Source of the DNA: Clostridia bacterium | GTDB lineage: Bacteria > Bacillota > Clostridia > UBA1381 | Direction of reading: 5' to 3' | NCBI GenBank assembly: GCA_045540855.1 | Contig: JAZQHZ010000293.1 | Coordinates: forward strand, 1 to 55,480 | DNA: 55,480 bases | In this document: piece after piece, positions 10,273 through 50,633 of the stretch | Layout: each line of letters begins with the position of its first letter | How positions within the stretch are numbered: position 1 is the stretch's first letter | Made by a program: the position numbers and the translations under genes | The notes under the pieces: generated by a model | Databases searched by the model: none | What the model saw: only the letters and a program-made list of their open reading frames with translations | Told to the model about the DNA's origin: nothing

Positions 10273-10400
10273 TTAAAATTTCCCCTTTTCAAAATCTTAG
10301 ATGAGAGCGAAGCTTGCGGTTTGCTGCTTAGAATACCGACTCTGACTTACATCCCAAATCCTTATTCCATTTTAATCGGTCACTCTGCTCTCTATGGTAT

Positions 10401-12779: not shown

Positions 12780-12794
12780 AATCGGTCTCCTGTA

Positions 12795-15884: not shown

Positions 15885-18122
15885 TTAACTCTTACTATTC
15901 CCTATCTGTGTTTTGACTTGCCCCGGAGTTTTTCCGAACTCCGCCTTAAAGGTTTTAATAAAATGATTTACATCCACATATCCTACCTTTTCGGCGATCA
16001 TACTTACAGTATATTCGTTCCCCTTTTCTATTAACAGATTTTCCGCTTCTTTTAAACGCCTCTGCTTTACATAATCGGTAAACCTGATGCCTGTTTTTTT
16101 CTTGAACAGTCTTGACAAATAAACCGGTGAGCGGTCAACTTCATCCGCAAGCATAACAAGCGACAGATTATGGTCGCTGTAATTTTCATTGACATATGCC
16201 TTCATTTTTTCGACAATGCTGTCACTATTATTGCCATCTACACTCGAAAAGCAGTATTCATCATAAATATTGCATATGGAGTTTGCAATGTCGTTAAAAT
16301 CGTCAATTGTCCTTGCATAGGATAATTTTGCCCGTATTACAAAACCCTCGTCGCTGAATTGACCATCAAACAAGTGTATTTCTCTTGCAAACTTCTCAAA
16401 AATATCAGAAAAGCACTTACGGACATCCTTTTTCGTCATTTTATTATCAGATGCTATATTTAATACTTCCTGCAATGCGGATTTTATATCTCTGAATTTT
16501 CGATTATTTAACTCACTAATTACTCTATTTATCAATTCTGCCCCCGATTCTGCCACAGGTATATTTTTATCCTTTTGGCAAATCACCTGATTATCGATCT
16601 GCACAGACTGGTACTCAGATAATTCTTTCAAATTTTGATATGCGGTTTTTATTTCACTTTCTGTTTCATATATATCATTTACAACAATTTTTGCAAAAAA
16701 CGGATATTTCACCGCTTTATTCAAATATTCACCTAAGTGCAAAACAAAATCATTTATACTGAAATCCATACTCGGCACGGTAAGTACAAAAATTCTCTCA
16801 CTGTTATCTGCCTCTATATTCATGACAATATCAACTTGTCCGTCATATGCCTCTGAAATAAAATTGCATATGCCCGTATGAATATCCCCGTAACCATTAT
16901 TTTTTACCTCAGATACCATTCCTGCACAACCAACAAAGCTGTCTATTATAATATAATTGTGCAGCAACATATCCTCAAGAAGCATATCTCCGTAGCCGAT
17001 AGACTCCTCAATATTCATAACGTTCTTCAATACTGCTATATGATATTTTTCCACCAAAAGCTTATACATTTTCCTAAGCTCATTGTGGCTTGTTCCTGTT
17101 TTCTCTATCAATCTATAAATATCATCAAAATCATTCCTGGTATCTTCAAATTGAGGAACCTCAATAACCTTGGTTTTGAAATCCTTTATCGGTTTATATA
17201 TTCTGTTTGTCATTACTAAAGAATACACAAACCATATGATTGAAAAAAGTAATATAAATGCCACAAAAAAGTATAGTAGCAACGATAACCTATGATTAAA
17301 TTGGCTCTTGGGGATATATGCAACATAATGCCAATTATGCACCGTAGAATTCGTTACAAGGCACATATATGATGTCCCGTCTAAATTCACACCAACAGGT
17401 CCTTTTGTACCATTCTTAATATCAGCATTTTTAAACAAGGTGCTGCCTGCATACAGGTTTTTTCCATCATTATCAAACATAGCAAAATTTCCGCCGTAAC
17501 TTGAATTGAAAAACCCTGTATCTATCAGTAACACCACTCTGGTATTTTTCAGCAAATTTTTATCAGTCAGCCAAACAATATACCGACTTTTCATCTTTGT
17601 AAATTTTGATGAATACTCGGCTTGCGGATACATTTTTCCTTTATTATTGTTTTCAAATTCACCAAATGTAAATCCACTTTCATCGTCACAATGCAGAATA
17701 TCGGTAAAATAGAACTCAGCACTATGTGTGCCTAATTCACTGCATATCTTATTGCTCGCCGGAGTATAAAACAATATACTCATGCCCGAATTTTTCGCCG
17801 AAAAGCTCTGTGCAACTCTTACTAAACTGCTGTACTGCAAGGCATTAGGAACACGATCATCCTCATACTCCTCCAAACCCATTGCCTCAATATCGGAGCT
17901 GATGAGCGATACCTTTTTAAAATACTCATCAACTCCATATGATATATTGCTGAGGCGCTGTGAATAAATATCTGCTACCGCACTTTCCAAAACGCCTCTT
18001 GAAATCTGATATTGGAGCACACCAAATATAATTATCATCGGAATTGCAATGATAAACGCATGTAAATATAATCTATATGTATTTGATTTGTTTTTTAAGA
18101 GTTTAAAGAATGACCAACGCAT
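15885..18122 (-). CDS. Membrane-spanning AraC-family one-component regulator (TM, ~240-aa extracytoplasmic sensor, TM, cytoplasmic linker, AraC HTH)
   Basis: ORF track 745 aa. Hydrophobic segments: LHAFIIAIPMIIIFGVLQY and LLLYFFVAFILLFSIIWFVYSLVM. C-terminal HTH: VYLSRLFKKKTGIRFTDYVKQRRLKEAENLL...GYVDVNHFIKTFKAEFGKTPGQV. Confidence 0.8.
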   Translation of the reverse strand: MRWSFFKLLKNKSNTYRLYLHAFIIAIPMIIIFGVLQYQISRGVLESAVADIYSQRLSNISYGVDEYFKKVSLISSDIEAMGLEEYEDDRVPNALQYSSLVRVAQSFSAKNSGMSILFYTPASNKICSELGTHSAEFYFTDILHCDDESGFTFGEFENNNKGKMYPQAEYSSKFTKMKSRYIVWLTDKNLLKNTRVVLLIDTGFFNSSYGGNFAMFDNDGKNLYAGSTLFKNADIKNGTKGPVGVNLDGTSYMCLVTNSTVHNWHYVAYIPKSQFNHRLSLLLYFFVAFILLFSIIWFVYSLVMTNRIYKPIKDFKTKVIEVPQFEDTRNDFDDIYRLIEKTGTSHNELRKMYKLLVEKYHIAVLKNVMNIEESIGYGDMLLEDMLLHNYIIIDSFVGCAGMVSEVKNNGYGDIHTGICNFISEAYDGQVDIVMNIEADNSERIFVLTVPSMDFSINDFVLHLGEYLNKAVKYPFFAKIVVNDIYETESEIKTAYQNLKELSEYQSVQIDNQVICQKDKNIPVAESGAELINRVISELNNRKFRDIKSALQEVLNIASDNKMTKKDVRKCFSDIFEKFAREIHLFDGQFSDEGFVIRAKLSYARTIDDFNDIANSICNIYDEYCFSSVDGNNSDSIVEKMKAYVNENYSDHNLSLVMLADEVDRSPVYLSRLFKKKTGIRFTDYVKQRRLKEAENLLIEKGNEYTVSMIAEKVGYVDVNHFIKTFKAEFGKTPGQVKTQIGNSKS

Positions 18123-18137
18123 TGTAAAAATCCTTGT

Positions 18138-19637
18138 TTATTTTAAATTGTCTATTATATCCTGGGCACGCTTTGTACCGGTCTTGTAAAAGTCCAAAAC
18201 ATCATATATACCGTTATCCTTTATATATTCGATAACGCTGTCCCACTCAGACATAGACTTTGTTCCCATTATAAAGTTTGACATTTGTTCATTTACATAC
18301 TTCAAAAGAGGTGTACTTATAGTATTTAAGTATTTGTCATACTCCTCATCTGTATATATAACCTTTGGTGCCAGCGGCATATCATATTGCTCGCTTTCCT
18401 TAAAAGCTTCTCTTTGTTCTTCCGACATTATGCATATAAACGAATTTCCGTTATCTACAAGATGTGTACATGAAGAACCCACACCGAATTCCTTTATATA
18501 ATCGGCTCTGCTTGGATATTTACTGTAATCTCTTGTTCCGTCAGGCAAGGTAGTATATGTAACGCCCTCTTCGCCCCATGTAGTAAGCTCCATACCCTCT
18601 TCCGAGTACATAAAGTCAATAAACTTTGCGGCAGAATCAAGATTCTTTGTATTTGAATATACTCCAAATGTTTGACCATCAAACATTGTATTTAAAACCT
18701 GTGCTTTGCCGTTTGTTCCCATTGCCATAGGAGGCATAAATGCCATAGTATAGTCCGGATTCTGCTCTCTTAACATGCTGTTAAAGAAATCAATTCTTAC
18801 CGTATAATCAATTGTTATAAAGCTTTGATCTGTCGATAACATACTCTGCCAATCCTCTGTTGAGAGCGTAAGGAAATCAGGCGGAATTAACTCCTCTGCA
18901 TAAAGCTTATTCATAAACTCTGTTGCTTCTTTATATTCCGGATCAAGCGGTCCGAATTTCCATTCTTTATCGTCAAAATTATAATAATAATCTCTGCCCG
19001 TTCCCCACTGTGCAAAGAAAAGCGAGATTCTTGATGGATACGATCTCATACACAGAGGATACGAAGACGGGTATAATTCCTTTAATTTCTTTAAAACCTG
19101 ATAAAATTCTTCTTCGTTTGTAGGAACTTGCAAATTGTGCTTGTCAAATATATCCTTTCTGTAAAGCCATCCCATCTTTGCCGACTCATCATAACCGTCC
19201 GTAGGCGGGGCATATGCTTCTCCGTCACTTGCAAGGAACTGTCCATATATGTCTGGATTTTCCTTTATAAATTTATCAAGATTCGGGGCTTTCTTTGCAA
19301 TCTCAGAAACAGGTACAAGTGCTCCCTGCATACCAAACTTTGTAGCCTGATTGACGTCCATTGCAATAATATCGGGTGCTTCACCTGATGCAATGGTAAC
19401 GCTCAGCTTATCCTCATAGCTACTCTGCGGAACAGCTGTGATATTCATTTTTATTCCGGTCTTTTCCTGAAGTTTTTCCCATATCCACCAGTTGTCCTGA
19501 TAGCTGTATGTATTGTGCGACAGCACCATAATATTAAGCTCATTATCGTTTGCCTGCTTTGTTTCTCCGCCTGCACAGCCCGCCACGCTAAGCAACGAAG
19601 CAAGTGCCAGCATTCCTGCCAATAATCTTTTTTTCAT
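18138..19637 (-). CDS. ABC transporter extracellular solute-binding lipoprotein (family 1, LplA/YtcQ-like, oligosaccharide)
   Basis: ORF track 499 aa. Lipoprotein signal MKKRLLAGMLALASLLSVAGC (lipobox VAGC). The size and the position next to two CUT1-type permeases support the call. Confidence 0.8.
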   Translation of the reverse strand: MKKRLLAGMLALASLLSVAGCAGGETKQANDNELNIMVLSHNTYSYQDNWWIWEKLQEKTGIKMNITAVPQSSYEDKLSVTIASGEAPDIIAMDVNQATKFGMQGALVPVSEIAKKAPNLDKFIKENPDIYGQFLASDGEAYAPPTDGYDESAKMGWLYRKDIFDKHNLQVPTNEEEFYQVLKKLKELYPSSYPLCMRSYPSRISLFFAQWGTGRDYYYNFDDKEWKFGPLDPEYKEATEFMNKLYAEELIPPDFLTLSTEDWQSMLSTDQSFITIDYTVRIDFFNSMLREQNPDYTMAFMPPMAMGTNGKAQVLNTMFDGQTFGVYSNTKNLDSAAKFIDFMYSEEGMELTTWGEEGVTYTTLPDGTRDYSKYPSRADYIKEFGVGSSCTHLVDNGNSFICIMSEEQREAFKESEQYDMPLAPKVIYTDEEYDKYLNTISTPLLKYVNEQMSNFIMGTKSMSEWDSVIEYIKDNGIYDVLDFYKTGTKRAQDIIDNLK

Positions 19638-19726: not shown

Positions 19727-20596
19727 TTATCCTTTTACTCCTCCAATCATAACACCCTTTACAAAATATTTTTGCACAAACGGATATACGCAGAGTATCG
19801 GTAATATAGAGAAGAAAATTGTAGCATATTTGATTGTTTCCGGAAGTGTAGATACATCTCCGGCAGAATTGGACATCTTTGTGTCGCCCGCAATTATTAT
19901 TTGTCTTAACACTACCTGCAACGGATATTTTGTCTTATCATCAAGCAACAAAAACGGCCATAGGAACGAATTCCATATTCCCACTGCGTAAAACAGCACC
20001 ATTGTTGAGACAATTGCCTTTGAGCACGGAAGAATTATAGAAAAAAACACTCTTAAATCATTCGCTCCGTCAACAAATGCCGATTCCTCAAGCTCTTTTG
20101 GCAGTCCCTCAAAAAATGACCGCATTACTGTAAGGTTATAAACAGAAACTGCACCCATAAGCAGAAATGACCACATTGAATTTAACAAGCCACACCATTT
20201 TACAACGAGGTATGTTGGAATCATTCCGCCTCCGAAGAACATTGTAAATACAAACATCTTATTAAAGAATTTCCTGAAAATCAGTCGCTTATTAGAAAGT
20301 GCATACGCTCCCAAAGTAGTAATCGCAACAGACAATGCCGTACCAACCACAACATACAGAATAGTATTACCATAACCGCTTATAATACTTGAATTTTTAA
20401 GAACCTCTTTATACGAGTCTAAACAAATACCTTTCGGCAGTAAAACAATATTACCTTTCATAACCTCCAGCGGATCACTTATAGACACCGAGAATATGTA
20501 AAGCAATGGATATACCGACACAATTATACTGAATATGATTATTACGCATTTTATTATTTCAAAAGCTGTGTCACCGTTAAATATTTTCTTAAACAC
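19727..20596 (-). CDS. ABC sugar transporter permease (LplC/YtcP-like)
   Basis: ORF track 289 aa. GTG start with an AAGGGG SD. Multi-TM protein. EAA loop: EESAFVDGANDLRVFFSIILP. Confidence 0.85.
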   Translation of the reverse strand: MFKKIFNGDTAFEIIKCVIIIFSIIVSVYPLLYIFSVSISDPLEVMKGNIVLLPKGICLDSYKEVLKNSSIISGYGNTILYVVVGTALSVAITTLGAYALSNKRLIFRKFFNKMFVFTMFFGGGMIPTYLVVKWCGLLNSMWSFLLMGAVSVYNLTVMRSFFEGLPKELEESAFVDGANDLRVFFSIILPCSKAIVSTMVLFYAVGIWNSFLWPFLLLDDKTKYPLQVVLRQIIIAGDTKMSNSAGDVSTLPETIKYATIFFSILPILCVYPFVQKYFVKGVMIGGVKG

Positions 20597-20611
20597 AATA
20601 TTACCCCTTTC

Positions 20612-21553
20612 TTACCATAGTGCTGTATCTGACAATTTGCGGGAAATCGCATTTGTCAAAATCACAAGAGTTGACGATATTAAAGACATAAACAAGCCGA
20701 TTGCAGCTGAATAACTATAGTTGCCTTTTACAATACCTCTTTCATATTCATATGTACTTATTACCTCAGATGCTGAAATATTTGCATCATTCTGCAATAG
20801 GAATACCTTGTCAAATCCAATTGTTACCGATCGTCCTACACTCATTATAAGAACAACCACAATAGTAGGTACAATCGCCGGCAAGGTTACATTCCAAAGC
20901 TTTTGCCAGCGGTTTGCACCGTCAACCGCTGCTGCGTCATAGAGTTCAACATTAACTCCGGTAAGTGCTGCAAGATATATTATAGTACCCCAGCCCGTTG
21001 TCTGCCAAATTCCCGAACCAATGTAAATTGTTCTGAAATATTTCGGATCGGCAATAAAGTTTATAGGTTTCCCTCCAAATAAAGTAATGATGCTATTGAC
21101 AATGCCGCCTCTCGGTGACAAGCAGGTCATTACCATTCCACACAGGATAACAACTGAAATAAAATGCGGGAAATAGCTTACCGTCTGTGTAAGCTTTTTG
21201 ATTTTTTCGTGTTTTATCTCATTTATAGCCAATGCCAGAATTATAGGCATCGGAAAATTCCACGCAGTATTAAGAATACCAAGCAGTAATGTGTTTTTTA
21301 ATACCGTAACAAAATACGGGTCACTGATGAATGCACGATAATGTTTGAGACCAACCCATGTGCTTCCGAAAACACCCTTAAAAGGGCTGTAATCCTGAAA
21401 CGATGTAACGAGTCCAAACATCGGCCAGTATTTAAATATTATAAAATATAACACACACGGCAAAATCATCAGGAGCAGATACTTGCTATCCGCCAGACGT
21501 TTTTTTAAGCTTTTCTTATTTGTCTGAATTTTATCCTTCTGTCTTTTTTTCAT
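20612..21553 (-). CDS. ABC sugar transporter permease (LplB/YteP-like)
   Basis: The ORF track extends to a TTG at 21607. I prefer the ATG at 21553 (MKKRQKDK...), which is preceded by GGAGAAGATGTG. The basic N-tail followed by LLMILPCVLYFIIFKYWPMFG is typical of LplB-type permeases. EAA loop: YDAAAVDGANRWQKLWNVTLP. Confidence 0.85.
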   Translation of the reverse strand: MKKRQKDKIQTNKKSLKKRLADSKYLLLMILPCVLYFIIFKYWPMFGLVTSFQDYSPFKGVFGSTWVGLKHYRAFISDPYFVTVLKNTLLLGILNTAWNFPMPIILALAINEIKHEKIKKLTQTVSYFPHFISVVILCGMVMTCLSPRGGIVNSIITLFGGKPINFIADPKYFRTIYIGSGIWQTTGWGTIIYLAALTGVNVELYDAAAVDGANRWQKLWNVTLPAIVPTIVVVLIMSVGRSVTIGFDKVFLLQNDANISASEVISTYEYERGIVKGNYSYSAAIGLFMSLISSTLVILTNAISRKLSDTALW

Positions 21554-21611
21554 CACATCTTCTCCTATTTTATATATATATTTGCACAGCAATCGGCTGT
21601 AGTTCAATTAT

Positions 21612-21924: not shown

Positions 21925-21985
21925 AAAAACAAAAAAATCTCTCGAAATACAGCTTGTGTTGAACTGTGCTTCGGGAGATTTTTTT
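21925..21985 (-). terminator. Candidate bidirectional intrinsic terminator downstream of the methyltransferase operon
   Basis: Arms atctctcgaa (21937-21946) and ttcgggagat (21970-21979), plus an inner acag/ctgt pairing. Flanked by an A-run at 21925-21936 (a T-run on the minus strand) and a T-run at 21980-21985. On the minus-strand RNA one C.A mismatch interrupts the stem. Confidence 0.4.
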
Positions 21986-22021
21986 ACAATATTTTTTTAG
22001 AAAGCTATTTTGTTACATCTT

Positions 22022-22061
22022 CTTATAGATATATTAGATTTAATAATAATATATCTATAAG
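22022..22061. repeat. Perfect 13-bp inverted repeat with a 14-nt spacer in the intergenic region
   Basis: cttatagatatat (22022-22034) and atatatctataag (22049-22061) are exact reverse complements. No adjacent T-run on either strand. Confidence 0.6.
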
Positions 22062-22145
22062 GGGATGTGCAAATTAAATTTACCTATCCTTCTAAACCGT
22101 TGACAAATTGGTCAGACCACGCATAACAAAGAAAAAGAATTTATT

Positions 22146-23249
22146 TTATCGTATGCCACATTTTGCAAGTATTTCAATTGCATCTTCTTTATTTTTGGCA
22201 TCAATGCTGTATGATATACCGGTTGAATATTTTTCAAAGTCCATTTTTTCAAAATCGTTATGTGTGAGCGTATATCCTACAACAGTTTTTTTCTTATCAA
22301 AGACTTCAGGAGCAAGGAAATCAAGATATTCTTTTCCGAAAACTAAGTTTGGCATATGACCGAAGTTTAATGCTAATATATTATCCGACTTTGCCATATC
22401 GAAGATCCAGTGATCGGCTCTTCCGCAGAAGTGCATAGAGGCTGGACCGAACTCATTAAATATAATATCATCGTATGTCATAGAAAATTCTTTATACATA
22501 TCGGATGATAAATTAACAGCTGAATCGTTTCTTAAAAGAATTCTTCCGGGATATAGCTGTTTCCAGTGGAAGTTAAATCCATCTGTTTCATCGTTAAGAT
22601 ATGGCTTTACTTTCTTCATTCGATCTATATACGTTTCAGTTACTAATTTTAAAAGCTCATGAACTAAATCAGGATCCTCATACATATCTATGTATATATC
22701 TGAACCGTAAATAAGATGAGCCGCATCAAGCGGACCCTGAAGGTCGGGATGGAACAGGCGGATTGTTTCCTGGCATTTTGGATATTTTGAAAGCGTTTCC
22801 CTGTAAAATTCATATGTTTCAATAACCTTTTGCCCGAAACCCGTTTTCCAATCCGGGACACCCTTAGATATTATTTCTTTAATGGTATCCTTTGAAACGT
22901 GTTCTACCCAAGGCATATTTCCGGCTACAATCTGTGACTTCAAACCGAACGCAGAAGGAAGAGTTCCAACACCGTAATTGGCACGAATCATTCCGGCAAG
23001 TGAGGTGTCTTTAACCTCAAAGGTTGGTATACACGGAAGTAATTCATTGAACATCATTTTGGCCATATCATTATGAGTTTCTTCCATAGAAAAAGGTTTA
23101 AAGTCATTAACAGGATATGCCGTGTGAATACAAATCCGGTCTGTTTTTTCAAAGTTTAATGTGCGTTTTTGCAGTTCAATTACGCTTTTATAATAATCAA
23201 CATCTATTATTTCTTCAAGATAATTCAAAAGTCTTTCAAGCTCTTTCAT
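22146..23249 (-). CDS. Divergent uroporphyrinogen-decarboxylase (URO-D)/MtaA-superfamily protein, candidate corrinoid-dependent methyltransferase
   Basis: ORF track 367 aa. AAGGAG SD. URO-D-like landmarks: HPDLQGPLDAAHLIYG, DPDLVHELLKLVTETYIDRMKK, LLRNDSAVNLSSDMYKEF, MHFCGRADH. No signal peptide. Confidence 0.6.
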   Translation of the reverse strand: MKELERLLNYLEEIIDVDYYKSVIELQKRTLNFEKTDRICIHTAYPVNDFKPFSMEETHNDMAKMMFNELLPCIPTFEVKDTSLAGMIRANYGVGTLPSAFGLKSQIVAGNMPWVEHVSKDTIKEIISKGVPDWKTGFGQKVIETYEFYRETLSKYPKCQETIRLFHPDLQGPLDAAHLIYGSDIYIDMYEDPDLVHELLKLVTETYIDRMKKVKPYLNDETDGFNFHWKQLYPGRILLRNDSAVNLSSDMYKEFSMTYDDIIFNEFGPASMHFCGRADHWIFDMAKSDNILALNFGHMPNLVFGKEYLDFLAPEVFDKKKTVVGYTLTHNDFEKMDFEKYSTGISYSIDAKNKEDAIEILAKCGIR

Positions 23250-23324
23250 TTTTTACACTCCTTATATTTAATATAAAATTCCACCAAAAAATGTTACTGT
23301 GTTTTCAAAGCAAATCTCTGAAGC

Positions 23325-24326
23325 TTATTTATAAAAATCATCTACTGCTTTAAAAAATGAGTCAATATTATCCCAACTGCTCAGATGAGGAATATCGCAT
23401 CCGGATGAAATCACAAAATTTGAATAGCCCGAGCATTCCTCCAGAAGCTTTGTTGTTTCCCTGTATATGCTTGCTGCACTTCCTTGCCTGAATTGCTGAG
23501 AGGGACTTATATTACCCATTGCAACGGTATTTTCAGGAATGTGTGTCAACATTTCACTCATTTTTATAGAATCGCCAAAATGATATGCACTGCATCCTGT
23601 TGAAAGGATTGAATCAATCATATAAAGTGCATTATCACCGCAGTTATGATAAATAACAATAAAATCATCTGTCTGAACTGCCTGCGCTATTTCCTTTACA
23701 TATACCGAGGAAAATTCATCTGCAAGAGCAGGTGAAAGCATACCTGCTAATGGCTCAGCCATTACAACGCCGTTTGCACCGGCTTTTTTGTATTCATTAA
23801 TGTAATTAACAAGAAATTCTGTGACTTTTTTTAGTGTGATATGGACCATATCCGGGTCATCATAGCAGTTAATCATTGCTTCGCTCACATCCATAAGCCT
23901 ACCGGCAAGCGAAAAAGGACCTATAACGCCTGCAAAAACAGGTCTGTCCTGTATCAGCAAACAAGCCTTTCTTATAGCTTCAATGTAAATCTTACATCGT
24001 GCACTGTATACGTCAGGTATAACAAGGTTTTGAGCATCTTCTTCTGAATTAACAACTGAACCGATAACTGTCGGTATTTCATCCTCAGAGAATCTTATTT
24101 GTGAACCGAATGCCTCTGCTTCCAAAGACAAATCCATAAGACTTACAGAAGCCAGTGAAGGAACCCTGTCGCATATAATTTTCATTGCATTTGCCTGCAA
24201 ATCACTGCTTGAAATTAAGTCCTTCACAGAAATATCCATTAAGCTTATTGCCGGAAAAGAAAGAATCGGCATAGCTTTTTTTGAGGGACTTTTGATTATT
24301 TCATCAAGCCATCTTTTCATATTCAT
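23325..24326 (-). CDS. URO-D/MtaA-family methyltransferase (methylcobamide-type)
   Basis: ORF track 333 aa. AGGAGG SD. Motifs: PILSFPAISLM..., EAEAFGSQIRF, VFAGVIGPFSLAGRLM, DDPDMVHITLKKVTEFLVNYI, GANGVVMAEPLAGMLSP, IVIYHNCGDN. Confidence 0.8.
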   Translation of the reverse strand: MNMKRWLDEIIKSPSKKAMPILSFPAISLMDISVKDLISSSDLQANAMKIICDRVPSLASVSLMDLSLEAEAFGSQIRFSEDEIPTVIGSVVNSEEDAQNLVIPDVYSARCKIYIEAIRKACLLIQDRPVFAGVIGPFSLAGRLMDVSEAMINCYDDPDMVHITLKKVTEFLVNYINEYKKAGANGVVMAEPLAGMLSPALADEFSSVYVKEIAQAVQTDDFIVIYHNCGDNALYMIDSILSTGCSAYHFGDSIKMSEMLTHIPENTVAMGNISPSQQFRQGSAASIYRETTKLLEECSGYSNFVISSGCDIPHLSSWDNIDSFFKAVDDFYK

Positions 24327-24372
24327 ATAATTTTTCCTCCTGTAAGATTAATGGTATCAGTGAAATAACGCC

Positions 24373-24401
24373 TTGAATATTTTCGTTGGTAGTGGTATAA
24401 T
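24373..24401 (+). promoter_or_regulatory. Predicted sigma-A promoter for the PocR-AraC and corrinoid-protein operon
   Basis: TTGAAT (24373-24378), a 17-nt spacer ending in TGg, then a consensus TATAAT (24396-24401). This leaves a ~150-nt leader before the ATG at 24557. Confidence 0.55.
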
Positions 24402-24426
24402 TAATATAGAATCACCTACTGTATCT

Positions 24427-24455
24427 ATATTAACAAATGTTGGTGATTTTTGCAA
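24427..24455 (-). promoter_or_regulatory. Predicted sigma-A promoter for the two URO-D methyltransferase genes
   Basis: Minus strand: TTGCAA (24455-24450), a 17-nt spacer ending in TGt, then TAATAT (24432-24427). It faces the plus-strand promoter at 24373-24401. Confidence 0.45.
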
Positions 24456-24556
24456 TGACAATCAAGCAAAAAAGCAAAATTTTACAAAAAATAATAATAA
24501 AATCATAGATAAAAATATGAAATGAATGTAATATATAAGAGAAGGGAAGAATTGCG

Positions 24557-25702
24557 ATGCACGATATAATAGAAAAATATAAAAAGCATATATCTGCACT
24601 TTGGGAAGTTAATTGTAATTTGCTTGATGCCAGATTAAAAACATTTGGAGAACAGGAAATGTTCTGCAAGAAGTGTCCCATAGGGTGTGATTTTGTAAAT
24701 ACTCATTTATATGGCTGTTATGAGTCTGTAAGATGGAATAATAAATACATTTATTACTGTCCGGGTGGATTTACATTTGTAGCAGTTCCTATCAGAGAAG
24801 ATGAAGATATTGTAAATAAAGCAGTAATAACAGGTCCTATTTTGATGGGAGATATTGAGGATATTGAAAATTCATATGGACTGCCTTATTTTGAAACAGC
24901 AAAGGTTAACGATCTTGCGGAGGTCGTATCTGCCGTTTTTGCACCCAGACTTAAATGCAATTCTGTAATATCTACCTCAGAAGAATTTCTTAATACTATA
25001 TATAAAGAGCTGGAATCGTACGAAAATTATAAAAGTTACCCTATCAGCCTTGAAAGCGAATTAAAAAGTGCTGTGCTTGAAGGCGACGGGCTGCGTGCAA
25101 AAGAAATAATCAACAAACTATTAGGACAAGTGTTTTTTTATTCAAATAACGATTTTGCAATAATAAAAACACGCGTTCTGGAATTGATTATTCTTTTATC
25201 ACGTTCTGCAATTGAAGGCGGTGCAGATGTTGAGCAGATATTTGCCCTTAACAATACCTGTGTCAGAGAGATAGAAAAATATACAACACTTGACAGATTA
25301 AACATATGGCTCATTGAAGTAATCAACAGATTTGTAAGCTACGTGTTTGAGTTCAATGACGTAAAGCACGCTGATATTATTTATAAAATCATCTCGTATA
25401 TTAAAAGTAATTATATGAAAAGGATAACTCTTGAAGATATTGCAGAGCATGTATACTTCAGTAAGACATATATAAGCAGGATTTTTAAAGAAGAAATGAA
25501 TGTGACGCTTTCAAAGTACATTAATAAAACAAGAATAGAGAAAAGTAAAATTTTATTGCTTGACTGTTCGCTTTCTTTAACTGATGTTGCAACTCTTGTC
25601 GGATTTGAGGAACAGAGCTATTATACGAAAATTTTCCGTGGTTTTACGGGTATGTCTCCGGGCAAATACAGAGAAAAACACGGTATTAATAAAAACATTT
25701 AA
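24557..25702 (+). CDS. PocR-type sensor domain fused to an AraC-family HTH transcriptional regulator
   Basis: ORF track 381 aa. The N-terminal Cys-rich segment FCKKCPIGCDFVNTHLYGCYESVRWNNKYIYYCPGGFTFVAVPI matches the PocR pattern (FC..C...C...Y.C..G...A.PI). C-terminal AraC HTH: ITLEDIAEHVYFSKTYISRIFKEEMN...LTDVATLVGFEEQSYYTKIFRGFTGMSPGKY. Confidence 0.75.
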   Translation: MHDIIEKYKKHISALWEVNCNLLDARLKTFGEQEMFCKKCPIGCDFVNTHLYGCYESVRWNNKYIYYCPGGFTFVAVPIREDEDIVNKAVITGPILMGDIEDIENSYGLPYFETAKVNDLAEVVSAVFAPRLKCNSVISTSEEFLNTIYKELESYENYKSYPISLESELKSAVLEGDGLRAKEIINKLLGQVFFYSNNDFAIIKTRVLELIILLSRSAIEGGADVEQIFALNNTCVREIEKYTTLDRLNIWLIEVINRFVSYVFEFNDVKHADIIYKIISYIKSNYMKRITLEDIAEHVYFSKTYISRIFKEEMNVTLSKYINKTRIEKSKILLLDCSLSLTDVATLVGFEEQSYYTKIFRGFTGMSPGKYREKHGINKNI

Positions 25703-25719
25703 TAAAGGAGACTTAAGAA

Positions 25720-26358
25720 ATGAGTATTTTAGAAGAAATCAGCACATTGTTACAGCAAGGAAGAAGCTCTAAGGTAAAGGAAGCGGTGAACGAAGCTCTT
25801 GAAAATGGAGTTTCACCGAATGAAATTCTTGAAAGCGGGCTTATGGCAGGAATGGCTATTGTAGGCGAAAAATTCAAGAACAATCAGGTTTTTGTGCCGG
25901 AAGTACTGGTCGCTGCCCGTGCAATGAACACAGGTATAGAAATTTTAAAGCCATATATGGTTATGGCTGAAACGAATAATAAAGGAAAAATAGTTATAGG
26001 AACCGTAAAAGGAGATTTACACGATATCGGAAAGAATCTGGTTAAAATAATGCTGGAGGCTAACGGACTGGAAGTTTTTGATCTTGGTGTTGATGTGGCA
26101 TCCGAAACCTTTGTCGAAAAAGCAATGGAGCTGAACGCTGATATTATTTGCTGCTCTGCACTTCTCACAACTACAATGGATGAGATGAAATTGGTTGTTG
26201 AAAAAGCAGTAACTGCCGGAATACGTGATAATATTAAAATTATGATAGGCGGTGCACCGGTTACACAGGAGTTTTGTGATAGCATAGATGCGGATTATTA
26301 TACCTCAGATGCACCAAGTGCAGCAGACATGGCATTGAAAATCTGCAGTGGGATGTAA
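25720..26358 (+). CDS. Corrinoid (cobalamin)-binding methyl-carrier protein, MtaC/MtbC/MtqC-like
   Basis: ORF track 212 aa. AAGGAGA SD, 17 nt after the regulator's stop. The N-terminal helical cap is followed by a Rossmann domain with the full B12 signature: GTVKGDLHDIGKNLV (DxHxxG), CSALLTTTM (SxL), IMIGGAPV (GG). Confidence 0.9.
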   Translation: MSILEEISTLLQQGRSSKVKEAVNEALENGVSPNEILESGLMAGMAIVGEKFKNNQVFVPEVLVAARAMNTGIEILKPYMVMAETNNKGKIVIGTVKGDLHDIGKNLVKIMLEANGLEVFDLGVDVASETFVEKAMELNADIICCSALLTTTMDEMKLVVEKAVTAGIRDNIKIMIGGAPVTQEFCDSIDADYYTSDAPSAADMALKICSGM

Positions 26359-26386
26359 ATTGGGTACCCAACTAACCCTTTCATAA

Positions 26387-26426
26387 ATATGCACCTTGAA
26401 ATTCTCGAGGTGCATATTATTTTTTA
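26387..26426 (+). terminator. Intrinsic terminator of the corrinoid-protein operon, at the convergent junction with the minus-strand AraC gene
   Basis: Perfect 10-bp stem atatgcacct (26387-26396) / aggtgcatat (26408-26417) with an 11-nt loop, followed by tattttttatt on the plus strand. It overlaps the stop codon of the minus-strand gene by 1 nt. Confidence 0.75.
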
Positions 26427-27262
26427 TTGTTTAATTTTTTAAATAGCGATGGTGTTACACCAATATATTTCTTGAAAATCGAGGTGAAATATTTAATATC
26501 ACTGTAGCTTACCTTCGAGGCTATGTCCTCCAATGACATTTCCGGATAATTAGTCAGCAAATCACACGCAATCTGCATTCTTGTACTTTGCAGGTACTCA
26601 GAAAACGTAAGCGATGTAAGCTGTTTAAACCGCCTGCTTATATATGGCAAAGAATATCCCAGTTCAGCACTCAGCGCAGAAAGGCTTATATTCTCGTCAT
26701 AATGCTCATATACATATTTTTCAATATACTTTACAGGAGATTTATCAGTATTACTTGATTTTACACTGCATATGCTGCGCATCGCCTGTATTATAATCTG
26801 CATCACCAGCAACCGTGCATAATCTTCATACCCGATTTTTTTGTTTTCAATTTCATCTTTTACTTGTAATATTTTTTCCCGGACATCATCATTGTGATAT
26901 ATATAATGCAACGGATCTGCAGGAATCAAAGCATAATCGTCATTAAAACCTATTTTTTTATAAAGCTCTTTGACTGTTTTTATCTCTCTGTATCCTCTGT
27001 CCAGAAATTTCGGTTTAAATATCAGATTCAGAATTTCAACGTCGCCATCATAATAATGCGACGCAGTAGTGTCTATAATCATATAGTCACCGGCAGTAAT
27101 TCTGTATCGTTTACCATTTATAAAATGATACCCTTCACCATTTGATACGTATGCTATCTCAAAAAAGTTATGCATATGCTCATAGCTTCTGTTATTATAT
27201 ACATATTTCGAAACAGATATATCCTTATGCTGGAAAAAGCATTCGTCACTATAATAGTACAT
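26417..27262 (-). CDS. AraC-family regulator with N-terminal cupin sensor domain
   Basis: The ORF track extends to a GTG at 27310. I prefer the ATG at 27262 (MYYYSDECF), which has an AAGGAAA SD. Cupin segment: HMHNFFEIAYVSNGEGYHFINGKRYRITAGDYMII. HTH: LPYISRRFKQLTSLTFSEYLQSTRMQIACDLL...YSDIKYFTSIFKKYIGVTP. Confidence 0.85.
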   Translation of the reverse strand: MYYYSDECFFQHKDISVSKYVYNNRSYEHMHNFFEIAYVSNGEGYHFINGKRYRITAGDYMIIDTTASHYYDGDVEILNLIFKPKFLDRGYREIKTVKELYKKIGFNDDYALIPADPLHYIYHNDDVREKILQVKDEIENKKIGYEDYARLLVMQIIIQAMRSICSVKSSNTDKSPVKYIEKYVYEHYDENISLSALSAELGYSLPYISRRFKQLTSLTFSEYLQSTRMQIACDLLTNYPEMSLEDIASKVSYSDIKYFTSIFKKYIGVTPSLFKKLNNKK

Positions 27263-27381
27263 AGTTAGTTTCCTTATATTTATATATTCAAAGTCTCTGC
27301 TGCAAAGCACAAAATCCGATATTCAGGGAGAGATAGTTTTCATGAATTAATATCGTTTGCAACAGAGACCTTGCGGCAAAA

Positions 27382-29391
27382 TTATAATGTTTTGCTGATT
27401 TGATACAGGGCTGAAAGAATGATTCCCGTACCGTGGTCATCATTATCAACCGTTCCAAGATTTATGTAATATTTTTCCTCCATAGAACAGCTTGAGCCAC
27501 GACATACATCAAATATATTTCCTTTGTCATCAATCTTATATGTCATAAGACCTTCATAGGCTTTTTGGATATTTTCTTTTACGCTATCGTTAAGCAATCC
27601 CAGCCTTATAGCTCTGCATAAGCCTATAATATACATACCGGTACACGAGGTTTCCTCATATGACTTATGATTATTCAGAACCTGATGCCACATTCCGTTC
27701 TTGCCCTGGAGACGTATTATGTTCTGAGCAAACACCTTAAAGGTTTCCTCCAGCTCCTTATATCCTTCTATATCCTTTGGAACTGTTTCCAGTACCTCTG
27801 ACATTGTTATAAATACCCATCCGTTTCCTCTGCCCCACGGAATACGGTTTGGTGTTTTTTCGTTTACAAAGTATATGTGCGAGAATATTCCTTCATCCTC
27901 CATAAACAGCTTTTTCTTAAATCCCAGCAGCTGCCGCACACATTCCTCTGACCATCTTCTGTCATTTTTCATCAGGGCGTATCTGAGCATAAACATACAG
28001 CTCATATACGTATCATCTGACCACATTGTATCACCACGATGGAAGGTTGTGTCATCAAACCTCGGAATAACATCTATTCTTTTTTCAAGAAATTCTGTTA
28101 TTTCTTTTGCATTTTCACTTTGTACAAGCTTATACAGCTCACACAAGTTCATACCAATTGTACCAATTGCATCCCAATCCTCCGGCATCATTCCGCGCTG
28201 TAAAAATGCTGATTCACCAAATGTCTCCATCTGCCATTTTTGCAGCTCGTAAAAATCAGCCAGGTCTGACATACTCTTAATAAAATACTCTTTATATCTA
28301 TCGTCACCTGTTATTCTTGAAGCATCCAGCAAGCCGTATTCACCGACCATCAATGCATAAAACCACTGTGCATAGAAATATGTACGCATATCCGCAACTA
28401 CATAATCATCACAGTCTGACAGCTTTAAAAAGCATTTTTTGCCGTCCGCATTTATATATGGTGTTTTTAAATCAAAATACAATTCAGGACCGTATTTTAT
28501 GTTGATGTCCTCTTCAACACCAAACGTGCCGGCAGTTGCCAGATTTATGCCGTACTCACGTGTTTTGCTGATAAACGGCAGATAAAATTCACCCTTATAT
28601 TCAAAGCTCCATTCATCGCCCTTTTCACATTTTACCAGCACAAAATCATCCTTCGACAATTCAAACGTGATTTTCTCTTTATCTGCAAAATATTCTTCCT
28701 TTGAATTAACGATAATTTTTGCTTTGCACTTAAAATCAAATTCTGCATTGCAAGTATTTTCCGCATACATCAGTGCATAGGCATATATACCGTTTTCTTT
28801 GGGATATATAGCTGTGAAATCAATGCTGTCATTCTTTGCAGGCGGTTCAGGATATTTCCATTCACCACGTTTTCCGTTCAAATCACTTACGGCTACGCCC
28901 TCTTCACCGTCATATTCTTTTTTCGGGCAAAGCATACTGATATGACATAAATAATCCTTTGCAAGCATTCCCGGATAATACTTGATTGACGGAGTAAAGC
29001 TCACCTTAAATTCATCGCCTGCTATACATTCAAGCTCCACTGTCACTCTGCCTGCTTTTTGCAAATAGCTTACAGTACCGTCTGATAATTCACATTCGAC
29101 TCCGTCTATAAATACCCTGCTTGCACCGCTGCACTTCAGCACTGCCTCAAATTCCGTTTCTGATTCTACAAGCACTGACACATATGCAAAATCCCCTGCT
29201 TTTGCATCCGGAAAAAGCTTATACAGATCAACCTCTCTTGCACCCAATGGCGAGTTATCACGTACATAAACCGGATTTCTTCTTGCAAAATATTCTACCT
29301 TGCCCTTCGGACGCAGCTCTAACATTCTGTCTGCTATTATTTTTGCCGTTTCTCTGACATTATTTGTCCTTGATAACATGTTGTCCTTCAT
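27382..29391 (-). CDS. Cytoplasmic GH88/GH105-clan unsaturated uronyl (glucuronyl/rhamnogalacturonyl) hydrolase with a ~330-aa N-terminal extension
   Basis: ORF track 669 aa. No signal peptide. C-terminal half motifs: MWSDDTYMSCMFML, RIPWGRGNGWVFITMSEV, MWHQVLN, EETSCTGMYIIGL, DDHGTGIILSAL. The WxRGNGW and ETS..T motifs are typical of YteR/UGL-type enzymes. Confidence 0.8.
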   Translation of the reverse strand: MKDNMLSRTNNVRETAKIIADRMLELRPKGKVEYFARRNPVYVRDNSPLGAREVDLYKLFPDAKAGDFAYVSVLVESETEFEAVLKCSGASRVFIDGVECELSDGTVSYLQKAGRVTVELECIAGDEFKVSFTPSIKYYPGMLAKDYLCHISMLCPKKEYDGEEGVAVSDLNGKRGEWKYPEPPAKNDSIDFTAIYPKENGIYAYALMYAENTCNAEFDFKCKAKIIVNSKEEYFADKEKITFELSKDDFVLVKCEKGDEWSFEYKGEFYLPFISKTREYGINLATAGTFGVEEDINIKYGPELYFDLKTPYINADGKKCFLKLSDCDDYVVADMRTYFYAQWFYALMVGEYGLLDASRITGDDRYKEYFIKSMSDLADFYELQKWQMETFGESAFLQRGMMPEDWDAIGTIGMNLCELYKLVQSENAKEITEFLEKRIDVIPRFDDTTFHRGDTMWSDDTYMSCMFMLRYALMKNDRRWSEECVRQLLGFKKKLFMEDEGIFSHIYFVNEKTPNRIPWGRGNGWVFITMSEVLETVPKDIEGYKELEETFKVFAQNIIRLQGKNGMWHQVLNNHKSYEETSCTGMYIIGLCRAIRLGLLNDSVKENIQKAYEGLMTYKIDDKGNIFDVCRGSSCSMEEKYYINLGTVDNDDHGTGIILSALYQISKTL

Positions 29392-29403: not shown

Positions 29404-31665
29404 TTATGTTCTGAACTGATATTGCTTAGGTGTTATTCCGTACTTCTCACGGAATTTACGTATGAAATAGTTTGAATTGCTGTAACCCATCATATCGCAT
29501 ACATCCTTGATTTTTACACTCTTATCCTTTAAAATCTCTGCACAACGTTCAAGCTTATTGTTTGTGAGATAGTCTATAAATCTTTCTCCTGTTTCATTCT
29601 TGAACATACGGCTGATATACGCCTGAGAAAGCATCAGATTATCTGCAACATACATCAGAGTGACATTTTTCATTTCTTCATCAGGTAAGGAATTTATAAA
29701 TTCTTTAATTCGTGTCGAAATTTCATATTCCTTTTCCTCATCATTGTTTTTATAGATTATATTAAGGCATACATTCTGTATAAATCCCATTATCTGGTCA
29801 AGCGTGTCTGCTGTCTTATATATGTCATACAGCGATTCCTTTTCCTTAACAATGTCGTCTGTTTCAATATTTCTCTCTTTCATATAATTGGATACAAAAT
29901 TGAGAAGCCGCATAAGAAACTGCTGCACATAATCATATGAAAAGCTTCCGTTTTTCAAAGTATTCACTATCTGAGAAATACATAAAAGAGTTTCATTTTC
30001 ATCTCTGTTATCTATACTCTTTTCAAGTTCCTTAAATAACGTTTCACAATCCAACGTCGAAACATTCTTTTCACTCATTTCAAGCTCCTTAAGATAAAAC
30101 ACCTTGAATCCGCTGTAAATGAAACTGTATTTTTGCATTTCGTGCAGACGCTCGTATATTCTTGATACATCATTTATGTCATAGGCTACATTGCCGACAT
30201 AAAGATGAAGATTCATATCCTGTTGCGAAAGCAATTTTTTCGTATCATTTAAAAATGTCTGTATTCCAAGTGTTCTTTCATTTTTTGAACATATTACAAC
30301 TATCAGCGATTGTGCCTCATTAAGACATAGTACAGTTGTGTTATCATTATTCAGTGAATTCAGGTATTCAATAAAGCTGTATTTGAAATATGCATCATTA
30401 TCCACTTCCGTTTCAATGAATTTACAGCTGATAACAGCAAATGCCCTGTACTCTCCTGTCATTCCGATAATTTCATAATGCTTTTTAAGATATTCATCGC
30501 TGATGTTTTTATTATGTATTATTTCATATGCAAAGTTACTTCTTGCTATCGGTAAAACATCCGATGCCAGCTTTTTATACTGCTTAATATCATCACCAAG
30601 CTGATAAATGGCATCACTTAAGAACGAGTAGGCATCACCTACTCTGCCCTTGCCCGTAAGTACTCCGACAAAATTAGCAAGATTATGTATCGGCATATAG
30701 TAGCTCTTCGATACAAAATATACGCCTAAAATTCCGATAAGCACCGCCAGAAGATAAATAATAAGCGTGAAAATCAAAATAACTCGGGTGTTCATATAAA
30801 CAACATCTATATTTCTTGTGCTTATATAGTTCCAGTTGTTATATTCCGATTTGAAATAGCTTACCAGCTTTTTCTCTCCGTCTATTTTACTTACAAAATA
30901 CCCGGTTTCATCGTCACTTTCTATTATTTTCTTTATGTACTTTTCATCAGAAATATCTTCATAAAGTAAGGCTTTGTTTGATGTGGAAATAATATTTCCC
31001 ATCTCATCTATAATTTCAATTCTTGCCTCGTCATCATTTTCAATATTCTTGAATGCCGACTGAAGACTTTCTTCATTGATATCAACCGCAATCATAGCCT
31101 TCGGAATAACATCCGCATACGGCGAATATCTCAGAATAAATGTCATAACATTTATTCCGTTACTGTTGCGGTAGGTGTTAATCCACTTTCTGCCCGACAT
31201 TCCCTGTTCGAAAATCTGTTTTTTCTCCGCAGTCGAACGGGTATATTTACTTTCATCATCCAGGTAGCTGATTCCTTCCGATGACATTATCATATTCCGG
31301 TGCGGCAAATAAATATGTACGTTTTCCACAAAATCCTCTGCATCAACCATAGCAGATAAATTAGTGTAATAATCATACATAAATCTTGTACCTAACGGCT
31401 CTGTACCATAAAGCCTGTCTGTTTCACTTCCCGGCTTTACTGATATAAAATTCTGTGCCGCAAAAACTTCTGCTTTTCTGAAAATATAGGTATCTGTGAA
31501 AACCTCTACCTGATTAAGCAGCTTAATGCTCACCTCGGACATTGAGCTTTTTATCTTGCTTGATGAATAGGTGTAGACAGCACCTGCCACAACTGTGACA
31601 AGTGCTATCACCAACACTGCTGATATAAACAAAAGCCGTCCAAAAAATTCGTCACGTTTTCTCAT
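29404..31665 (-). CDS. Membrane-spanning AraC-family one-component regulator (second copy of the TM-sensor-TM-HTH architecture)
   Basis: ORF track 753 aa. TM segments: LLFISAVLVIALVTVVAGAVY and VILIFTLIIYLLAVLIGILGVYFV. HTH: QAYISRMFKNETGERFIDYLTNNKLERCAEIL...GYSNSNYFIRKFREKYGITPKQY. Confidence 0.8.
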   Translation of the reverse strand: MRKRDEFFGRLLFISAVLVIALVTVVAGAVYTYSSSKIKSSMSEVSIKLLNQVEVFTDTYIFRKAEVFAAQNFISVKPGSETDRLYGTEPLGTRFMYDYYTNLSAMVDAEDFVENVHIYLPHRNMIMSSEGISYLDDESKYTRSTAEKKQIFEQGMSGRKWINTYRNSNGINVMTFILRYSPYADVIPKAMIAVDINEESLQSAFKNIENDDEARIEIIDEMGNIISTSNKALLYEDISDEKYIKKIIESDDETGYFVSKIDGEKKLVSYFKSEYNNWNYISTRNIDVVYMNTRVILIFTLIIYLLAVLIGILGVYFVSKSYYMPIHNLANFVGVLTGKGRVGDAYSFLSDAIYQLGDDIKQYKKLASDVLPIARSNFAYEIIHNKNISDEYLKKHYEIIGMTGEYRAFAVISCKFIETEVDNDAYFKYSFIEYLNSLNNDNTTVLCLNEAQSLIVVICSKNERTLGIQTFLNDTKKLLSQQDMNLHLYVGNVAYDINDVSRIYERLHEMQKYSFIYSGFKVFYLKELEMSEKNVSTLDCETLFKELEKSIDNRDENETLLCISQIVNTLKNGSFSYDYVQQFLMRLLNFVSNYMKERNIETDDIVKEKESLYDIYKTADTLDQIMGFIQNVCLNIIYKNNDEEKEYEISTRIKEFINSLPDEEMKNVTLMYVADNLMLSQAYISRMFKNETGERFIDYLTNNKLERCAEILKDKSVKIKDVCDMMGYSNSNYFIRKFREKYGITPKQYQFRT

Positions 31666-50209: not shown

Positions 50210-50266
50210 ACTATTTCCCTTTCTATGTGTTTATTTTGTCGGTGTTTCTCACCTGATTTATATCTA

Positions 50267-50295
50267 TATTTTAACATAAAAAATGCCTTAATTCA
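50267..50295 (-). promoter_or_regulatory. Predicted sigma-A promoter of the long module-2 operon
   Basis: Minus strand: TTGAAT (50295-50290), a 17-nt spacer ending in TGt, then TAAAAT (50272-50267). It lies ~55 nt upstream of the ATG at 50209 and immediately downstream of the terminator at 50384-50429. Confidence 0.5.
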
Positions 50296-50383
50296 AGCGA
50301 TTGTCAAAAATGAACCCTCTACAACAAAAAAGTATCATTTTTCCTGTGAGCCGCATAAAAACGGCATTTTTTCATCCTTTTTT

Positions 50384-50429: not shown

Positions 50430-50440
50430 TTATATCAGCT

Positions 50441-50614: not shown

Positions 50615-50633
50615 TGCTTTATTCCTCCTCTGA

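Follow-up and report, generated by a model that had tools for sequence, protein, structure and literature searches.

The 55,480-bp stretch of DNA analyzed here (the window; contig JAZQHZ010000293.1 of a Clostridia bacterium, assembly GCA_045540855.1) carries a cassette of four genes that code for a corrinoid (B12) carrier protein, two proteins of the uroporphyrinogen decarboxylase (URO-D) fold, and a transcription regulator. The cassette lies between a glycoside hydrolase (GH) family 88/105 gene and an ATP-binding cassette (ABC) importer, with no other one-carbon (C1) genes in the locus, as a preliminary description of the sequence had reported. A gene search of the window (25 open reading frames [ORFs], with Pfam and NCBIfam profiles) confirms the four ORFs at 22146-26358 with the motifs and domains then ascribed to them, and the domain, motif, and zinc-ligand evidence together support a real corrinoid-dependent methyltransferase cassette. 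We discuss below the further proposal that it is an anaerobic sugar O-demethylase.

Organization of the cassette

The cassette and its signals are organized as follows:

22146-23249, minus strand: MTX, a divergent URO-D-fold TIM barrel of 367 amino acids (aa) (Pfam, AlphaFold, Foldseek)
23325-24326, minus strand: MtaA-like URO-D methyltransferase, 333 aa (Pfam URO-D, NCBIfam)
24327-24556, no strand assigned: divergent intergenic region of 230 bp, with presumed promoters and operator
24557-25702, plus strand: transcription regulator with a PocR domain and an AraC helix-turn-helix, 381 aa (Pfam)
25720-26358, plus strand: corrinoid (B12) carrier protein, 212 aa, with cap and Rossmann domains (Pfam, TIGR02370)
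26386-26418, plus strand: intrinsic terminator 3' of the corrinoid-protein gene, a 14-bp stem followed by a T-run
21931-21985, minus strand: intrinsic terminator 3' of MTX, an inverted repeat forming a hairpin with a T-run

Two gene pairs diverge from the 230-bp intergenic region, and there is a terminator at each end. The intergenic region contains a promoter-like site at 24373-24401 on the plus strand (TTGAAT-17-TATAAT, with a TG) and a second, matching at 9/12 positions, at 24521-24494 on the minus strand, both being consensus matches only. The RNA of the terminator after MTX folds at -22.3 kcal/mol (z = -5.46; 0 of 200 shuffled sequences are equally stable), and because this terminator is strong the cassette is taken to be its own transcription unit, separate from the importer operon; co-transcription with the ABC importer was considered and is ruled out on the same grounds. 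With full-length ORFs, promoter-like sites, and terminators, the cassette is intact, and inspection of its surroundings for insertion scars gave only short, chance-level repeats and two hairpins after MTX. A 22-nt AT-rich inverted repeat (22015-22068; 91% complementary, with a 10-nt loop) is situated between the stop codon of MTX and the hairpin of its terminator.

The 212-aa protein matches the Pfam B12-binding_2 (E = 1e-21) and B12-binding (E = 1.5e-25) domains, passes the TIGR02370 model "methyltransferase cognate corrinoid protein" (217.4 bits; cutoff, 215.3), and its translation holds the base-off/His-on signature DxHxxG, SxL, and GG (GDLHDIGKNLV, SALLTTT, and IGGAPV). The regulator gene is on the same strand and ends 17 nt upstream of the corrinoid-protein gene. 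Its product matches PocR at 28.1 bits (cutoff, 23.9) and HTH_AraC at 68 bits, with E values of ∼1e-18 for both HTH_AraC and HTH_18. It is 54 to 70% identical to the regulators adjoining corrinoid-protein genes at four of the loci gathered in this analysis (L001, L002, L009, and L083; the L numbers identify loci throughout), and C37, C40, C44, H50, C54, and C68 of its N-terminal domain are invariant in four orthologues; the L009 orthologue matches PocR at 32.9 bits. At two further loci (L076:11910-13481 and L042:3976-5511), ORFs of 511 to 523 aa match both an AraC-type regulator (∼22 to 30% identity, partial) and the corrinoid protein (60 to 62% identity over >90% of its length), and are either regulator/B12-domain fusions or an artifact of the simple ORF caller.

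The 333-aa protein matches Pfam URO-D at 165.5 bits (E = 2e-48), and its top NCBIfam match is methylcobalamin:coenzyme M (CoM) methyltransferase (E = 1e-37), at 129.7 bits versus a cutoff of 244. In a residue-by-residue alignment with Methanosarcina mazei MtaA (4ay7), HNC falls on HIC and SSGCD on APGCG, such that H227-x-C229 and C310 coincide with all three MtaA zinc ligands; these three residues are invariant in 27 homologues. A His-Cys-Cys site marks the UroD-family methyltransferases directed to sulfur or selenium, the O-directed ones having carboxylates in place of Cys, and ClMlp2, an MtaA-like protein of Clostridium ljungdahlii, transfers the methyl group of methylcobalamin to selenide and, more slowly, to sulfide (Kountz and Balskus, PMC10418091). 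We propose from these sequence features that the 333-aa protein is a methyl-corrinoid:thiol methyltransferase that would fill the role of second methyltransferase (MT-II). The MT-II family of the AcsE/MetH type is pterin-binding. As the folate-directed bacterial MT-IIs (MtqA, bacterial MtaA, OdmD, and CdmA) form one family with AcsE and MetH (PMC13222342), the His-Cys-Cys site indicates that the 333-aa protein is not a canonical tetrahydrofolate MT-II, and a reading of it as an acetogen-type MT-II does not hold. The same grouping rejects the idea that bacterial MtaA and MtqA are UroD-type folate methyltransferases. The MtaA-like family is very large, with >8,000 matches, many of them 62 to 72% identical across Clostridia.

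MTX, the name given here to the 367-aa protein (residue numbers count the start Met), is marginal in its match to Pfam URO-D (28.3 bits; cutoff, 23.9), and no single stretch passes. Its AF2 model (pLDDT, 96.2) has UroD and MtaA (4ay7/4ay8) as its top Foldseek matches, with probability 1.0, TM-scores of 0.57 to 0.69, the best at 0.63 to 0.69, and 12 to 16% identity, MtaA being the top structural match by TM-score. A profile alignment (hhalign) with the MtaA-like family gives a probability of 97% and places the MTX H-x-C on the family H-x-C. Confidence is warranted that MTX is predicted correctly to have the URO-D TIM-barrel fold, and the profile and structure searches agree in placing both barrel proteins within the URO-D/MtaA family, as first described; the B12-binding, B12-binding_2, PocR, and HTH_AraC profiles matched as well, with only the URO-D match of MTX being marginal.

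Within that fold, MTX stands apart. A profile of its family matches no solved protein among PDB sequences at E <0.1. The family core is R89, D169, Q171, D242, S248, H273, and C275, each kept in 108 to 114 of 117 representatives; D169 and D242 are near-invariant, and H273-x-C275 is kept in 110, but across these 117 representatives there is no conserved third Cys to complete a His-Cys-Cys triad. A full scan of 1.84 billion cluster representatives yields only 250 at E ≤1e-30 and 1,747 at E ≤0.001. The contig collection contains no exact match to the MTX of the window, and a metagenome scan with this single protein gave one distant 2.3-kb locus. On sequence criteria, MTX belongs to a small, discrete, uncharacterized clade rather than being an ordinary UroD or MtaA, and it is proposed to be the substrate-specific methyltransferase (MT-I) of the cassette.

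Orthologous cassettes and the neighbors of MTX genes

A scan of one genome per species returned 237 MTX relatives, 80 of which provide the locus counts given here. Their hosts include Clostridia, Oscillospiraceae, Victivallales, Planctomycetota, Anaerolineae, Atribacterota, Verrucomicrobiota, Prolixibacteraceae, Bacteroides, and spirochaetes, lineages that are mostly known anaerobic degraders of sugars and glycans. The nearest relatives (MTX 66 to 87% identical; L001-3 and L081-87) share a six-gene arrangement, in which PocR/AraC and corrinoid-protein genes are transcribed in one direction and genes for a RACo-type activator, the MtaA-like protein, a DUF2284 protein, and MTX in the other. Judged by gene content, the window carries a trimmed copy of this Clostridia module, minus RACo and DUF2284: tblastn of the window finds neither gene nor remnants of either, and together with domain searches upholds the report that it has no RamA-type activator and no pterin-binding methyltransferase. 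RACo is also present at L099, a variant cassette ordered corrinoid protein, UroD, MTX, UroD, DUF2284, and a second MTX subclade is accompanied by MtaA-like, corrinoid-protein, and RACo genes in Victivallis and Oscillospiraceae (L042, L064, L072, L076, L077, and L079).

The Victivallis sp. metagenome-assembled genome (MAG) locus L072:164-10898 codes for an MTX-like protein, a 313-aa protein, an MtaA-like protein, a corrinoid protein, RACo, a DUF1638 protein, a UroD, an AraC regulator, and a glycyl-radical enzyme, with DUF1638 in the position occupied by DUF2284 in Clostridia; L077 (V. vadensis DSM 14823), L079, and L064 are similar.

A corrinoid-protein gene lies within 10 kb in 10 of the 80 MTX loci, nearly always with an MtaA-like gene and RACo and in two separate subclades, an adjacency far above chance for genes this rare. 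The other 70 loci are compatible with MTX being a B12-independent, zinc-dependent sugar or sugar-acid enzyme (e.g., an isomerase, decarboxylase, or etherase) that sits beside a corrinoid system only in some lineages. UroD itself is a cofactor-free decarboxylase, and distant MTX members lie in classical non-phosphorylative sugar-acid clusters. This explanation is nonetheless unlikely, standing second among the four rivals considered here, in view of the tight RACo-MtaA-like-DUF2284-MTX operons in two MTX subclades and several taxa, and of the alignment of the MTX H-x-C with the zinc ligands of corrinoid methyltransferases. Moreover, genes far apart can be served by one activator or corrinoid protein, as in A. 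dehalogenans, which possesses few activators for its 26 methyltransferase systems (PMC13222342).

Carbohydrate-related genes recur near MTX, with and without the corrinoid protein. At L009 (a goat caecum Clostridia), PocR/AraC, corrinoid-protein (73% identical), and UroD-paralogue genes are found with a 2,149-aa heparinase II/III-type lyase, MTX, two large AraC regulators, an ABC importer, and GH88. Two GH43 genes lie directly 3' of the L099 cassette, and two GH31 genes and a DUF6259 protein gene are divergent from a five-UroD cassette at L076. In combination with the polysaccharide lyase (PL) and GH105-type genes of the window, these loci bear out, in several independent arrangements, the proposed co-location of such cassettes with carbohydrate-active enzyme (CAZyme) genes. 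The flanks of the closest relatives vary, and some have no recognizable CAZyme.

MTX alone is found within a sugar ABC importer/GH88 operon (L094: solute-binding protein, two permeases, a 606-aa protein, MTX, and GH88), which is adjoined by another sugar ABC operon that includes two UroD paralogues; the 606-aa protein has no match in a PDB sequence search. A Vallitalea copy adjoins GH85 and GH3 genes, and a Bacteroides MAG (L025) has MTX, a Cys/Met-metabolism pyridoxal phosphate (PLP) enzyme, a GH88-like gene, and GH78. In pooled counts, the neighbors at 28 Firmicute-like loci are led by ABC permeases (10), AraC (9), solute-binding proteins (4), and LacI (3), with GH88 (2) and alginate-lyase folds (2) next, and those of distant MTX homologues include GFO/IDH/MocA (6), gluconolactonase (5), enolase superfamily (5), sulfatase (4), and BNR (4) proteins, as well as aldose epimerase, Zn-dependent alcohol dehydrogenase, RraA-like aldolase, GntR, and TRAP transporter genes. 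The setting of the distant homologues looks like a non-phosphorylative sugar or sugar-acid pathway. Protein P0294 is a GPH-transporter/MTX chimera, the gene context of which is uninformative.

The L025 PLP enzyme (L025:11257-12393; E = 3e-116) is positioned between the MTX homologue and the GH88-like gene, which is followed by the GH78 rhamnosidase, and possibly hints at a link to methanethiol or methionine chemistry.

A second type of association is by fusion. GH67 enzymes release 4-O-methyl-glucuronic acid from xylo-oligosaccharides, and protein P0372 (L100:2050-5061; 1,003 aa) is composed of a GH67-like alpha-glucuronidase followed by an MTX domain; the GH67 part matches the Pfam GH67 M and C domains and AguA of G. 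stearothermophilus (1mqr; E = 3e-16). The MTX part of P0372 ends just before the H-x-C, the remainder missing on the contig, but a second protein of 1,020 aa, P0385, is 74% identical, derives from a different data source (ENA versus JGI for the pair), and carries the full MTX domain, such that the fusion is considered real. P0385 has Asp at the position of the zinc Cys (H-I-D), a change that has been reported for O-directed enzymes (PMC10418091). None of the loci gathered has a GH67-like gene as a separate neighbor of MTX.

The fusion, together with the TRAP, GPH, uronate-lyase, and GH88/105 associations, favors 4-O-methyl-uronic acid as the substrate, although this is a best guess based on two related fusion proteins. 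The handling of uronic-acid glycans by the locus (PL-fold proteins and the GH105-type hydrolase) also raises the prospect that the methyl donor is methanol or a pectin-type uronate methyl ester instead of a methyl ether, and a carboxylate is a far better leaving group than an alkoxide for attack by Co(I). However, the known methanol MT-Is are of the MtaB family, which is different and absent from the window, and the GH67 fusion points to 4-O-methyl-glucuronic acid, an ether. As we also know of no corrinoid-dependent ester demethylation, a methanol or ester donor is quite unlikely and is placed third among the rivals.

Proposed demethylation scheme and comparison with known systems

We interpret the cassette as a corrinoid-dependent demethylase module that has been recruited to an acidic-glycan locus and acts on a glycan-derived methyl-ether sugar, and assign this reading a probability of roughly 0.45. 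The domain identities, fold, zinc-ligand pattern, operon structure, and recurrent neighborhoods are the observations from which we infer a methyl donor, an acceptor, and a direction of transfer. MTX would bind a methyl-ether sugar released from the glycan, at best guess a 4-O-methyl-uronic acid or a small oligosaccharide bearing one, and its zinc site (His273, Cys275, and probably a carboxylate) would polarize the ether oxygen. The 212-aa corrinoid protein, in its Co(I) state, would take the methyl group from the MTX-bound ether, and the MtaA-like His-Cys-Cys enzyme would then pass it from methyl-Co(III) to an acceptor of the thiol type, for which the candidates are sulfide, homocysteine, or some other small thiol, regenerating Co(I). 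The PocR/AraC protein would turn on both divergent operons, and a RACo-type activator would reactivate oxidized Co(II); since the orthologous cassettes encode such an activator and the window does not, it must be encoded outside the window. The more specific idea that the MTX clade is the missing anaerobic methyl-ether-sugar demethylase, acting foremost on 4-O-methyl-glucuronate from xylan, arabinogalactan, or pectic glycans and passing the methyl group via the corrinoid protein to sulfide or a thiol, is doubtful and is offered tentatively.

Several observations weigh against the demethylase interpretation. The sugar O-demethylase first proposed draws support from the recurrent CAZyme and sugar-related neighbors and the GH67 fusion, but its methyl donor is deduced from context only, and 70 of the 80 MTX loci have no corrinoid-protein gene within 10 kb. 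The MTX domain of the fusion shares only 28% identity with the MTX of the window, and MTX homologues of 60% and 64% identity (L092 and L096) are lone genes in non-sugar contexts. MtaA-like genes also occur alone: in Robinsoniella and Clostridiaceae NSJ-31 (L088:10001-11008 and L089-L091:10001-11014), neither a corrinoid protein nor an activator or further UroD protein is encoded within 10 kb. The window lacks both RACo and DUF2284. The flanks of the orthologous cassettes differ from one another and from those of the window (LacI, AraC-cupin, GFO/IDH/MocA, S-layer homology [SLH] proteins, and 1,500- to 2,000-aa proteins without Pfam domains), often have no known CAZyme domain, and share only SLH domains with the window flanks; because they are non-homologous, the position in a glycan locus could be incidental, and the cassette behaves as a portable (mobile) module with its own terminators. 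Lastly, as a leaving group an alkoxide is much inferior to a phenolate, and we know of no corrinoid enzyme that cleaves a sugar methyl ether.

Variation in the flanks also speaks for a rival reading, that of a methyl-sulfur or methyl-selenium module like those put forward for "mlp gene clusters," in which the MtaA-like enzyme would be key, acting on methylthiols, methylselenides, sulfide, or selenide, and the location in a glycan locus would be accidental. The type 1 mlp clusters are widespread in anaerobic Firmicutes, associate with sulfur and selenium genes, and need both Mlp2 and Mlp3, two His-Cys-Cys proteins ∼30% identical to CoM methyltransferases (Kountz and Balskus, bioRxiv 2023, PMC10418091). 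The His-Cys-Cys site of the 333-aa protein, which those authors link to sulfur and selenium substrates, and the combination of a corrinoid protein, RACo, and several UroD proteins, which is the architecture of their clusters, both fit, as does the Cys/Met PLP enzyme adjoining MTX in L025. The cassette differs, however, in having one CoM-methyltransferase-like protein, with MTX as its partner and CAZymes and sugar transporters as its neighbors. MTX is too divergent for an Mlp, lying far from the CoM-methyltransferase branch and lacking the third Cys of type 1 Mlps, and no sulfur or selenium metabolism genes are found in the window or beside the cassettes at the loci examined. With a single SCMT-like protein, no sulfur or selenium neighbors, and an orthology to Mlp1-3 that is at most conjectural, the cassette cannot yet be placed in the mlp group. 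Such a module would also leave the repeated CAZyme and sugar-transporter neighbors and the GH67 fusion unexplained; it is an improbable explanation, if the best placed of the four rivals.

The aryl O-demethylases of acetogens and Desulfitobacterium (OdmABCD, VdmB, and MtvABC) and the chloromethane system CdmBCA resemble the cassette in pairing a UroD-superfamily MT-I with a small cap/Rossmann corrinoid protein, and in using an ATP-dependent RACo-type activator, here encoded only by the orthologous cassettes. They differ in three respects: the second methyltransferase of the cassette is UroD/MtaA-like with a His-Cys-Cys site, outside the MT-II family grouped with AcsE and MetH; MTX forms a separate deep clade without a sequence-detectable solved relative; and the cassette is set among genes for glycan degradation rather than for aromatic or C1 metabolism. 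No AcsE/MetH-family MT-II is present among the 25 ORFs of the window or in the orthologous cassettes, and without this pterin-binding component the cassette falls outside the three-component aryl O-demethylase group.

The shared architecture of a UroD-family MT-I, corrinoid protein, and activator does nevertheless suggest an O-demethylase for methoxy-aromatics, as known from gut and acetogenic Clostridia, with ferulate-type phenolics from plant glycans as its substrates, and pectic and xylan side chains of plants do bear feruloyl esters. We regard this as the least likely of the rivals. No feruloyl esterase, aromatic-acid gene, or pterin-binding MT-II is seen in the window or the orthologous cassettes; the MTX profile is remote from every solved UroD-superfamily protein (none at E <0.1, the presence of a characterized aryl-ether MT-I in the search set being unverified); and the TRAP, GPH, sugar-acid, and GH67 associations point to sugars. 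None of the four rivals accounts for the corrinoid operons and the carbohydrate contexts together as well as the demethylation of a glycan-derived sugar does.

Methanogen MtaA/MtbA (4ay7) is similar to the 333-aa protein in fold and in all three zinc ligands, but the host of the cassette is a bacterium of low GC content that encodes glycan lyases and SLH-domain proteins, and the 333-aa protein scores far below the family cutoffs.

Methyl-ether sugars such as 4-O-methyl-glucuronic acid, 6-O-methyl-galactose, and 2-O-methyl-fucose or -xylose block glycoside hydrolases, and to our knowledge the sole known removal of these methyl ethers is by an oxygen-requiring cytochrome P450. The P450 sugar O-demethylase of marine aerobes, which acts on 6-O-methyl-D-galactose, resembles the cassette in proposed role, the removal of a methyl ether from a glycan sugar encoded within a polysaccharide utilization locus, although it needs O2 and releases formaldehyde whereas the cassette would transfer the methyl group nucleophilically to Co(I) without oxygen, and the proteins belong to unrelated families (Reisky et al. 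2018, as cited in PMC12316285 and PMC6292453). A literature search found no description of a corrinoid-dependent sugar demethylase, in agreement with the preliminary description, and a 2025 study of gut porphyran degradation regards anaerobic 6-O-methyl-galactose demethylation as unsolved and still to be discovered (PMC12316285). As far as sequence comparison can tell, the cassette is likely to be novel in its MT-I, which represents a new clade, in its substrate class, which is probably new as well, and in a thiol-type second step that is unusual in bacteria.

If the demethylase interpretation is correct, MTX would name an anaerobic enzyme for removing sugar methyl ethers and corrinoid methyl transfer would be widened from aromatic to aliphatic ethers. 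It would also account for many genes annotated as "uroporphyrinogen decarboxylase family" that anaerobes of the gut, rumen, and sediment carry in their sugar loci, provide models of fiber fermentation with a methyl sink, and tie gut and sediment fiber degradation to the formation of methanethiol or methionine. The MTX family is small and well delimited (the 250 representatives noted above) and is thus readily testable, narrowing the question of anaerobic sugar demethylation to feasible assays.

Surroundings of the cassette

The genes flanking the cassette, with the AraC-cupin regulator and then the hydrolase on one side and the ABC importer on the other, are as follows:

26417-27310, minus strand: AraC-cupin regulator (Pfam)
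27382-29391, minus strand: GH88/GH105-type unsaturated uronyl hydrolase, 669 aa (Pfam)
19727-21607, minus strand: two permeases of a sugar ABC importer (Pfam BPD_transp_1)
18138-19637, minus strand: solute-binding protein of the sugar ABC importer (Pfam SBP_bac_1)

The nearest solved relatives of the 669-aa hydrolase are the YteR/GH105 group and the ulvan unsaturated 3S-rhamnoglycuronyl hydrolase 4ce7. No pterin-binding methyltransferase or other C1 gene is present among the 25 ORFs, and Rfam finds no B12 riboswitch in the whole window.

Farther out, the window codes for three paralogous alginate-lyase-fold proteins (7456-15845), giant SLH-anchored proteins, and a second ABC system, as well as three proteins of 740 to 860 aa (47642-55412), two of which have weak matches to the hyaluronate-lyase N-domain. 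The lyase-like proteins at 10401-12779 and 50634-52868 have no solved relative in a PDB sequence search, and the lyase-like proteins of the window probably represent polysaccharide lyases not yet described. ORFs of 1,288, 1,506, 583, and 527 aa (3563-7429, 37805-42325, 42340-44091, and 44165-45748, respectively) contain no Pfam domain above the gathering threshold; the 1,506-aa ORF has only a subthreshold 3keto-disac_hyd match (19.8 bits versus 26.8), and the 527-aa ORF adjoins two permeases, in the place expected for a solute-binding protein. Large AraC regulators are encoded at 15885-18122 and 29404-31665, and also at L009:11166-15758 and L094:1706-3985. These 740- to 760-aa regulators, one with a dCache-like region, adjoin MTX-containing sugar loci in the window, L009, L011, and L094, and may be sensors of the cognate oligosaccharides.

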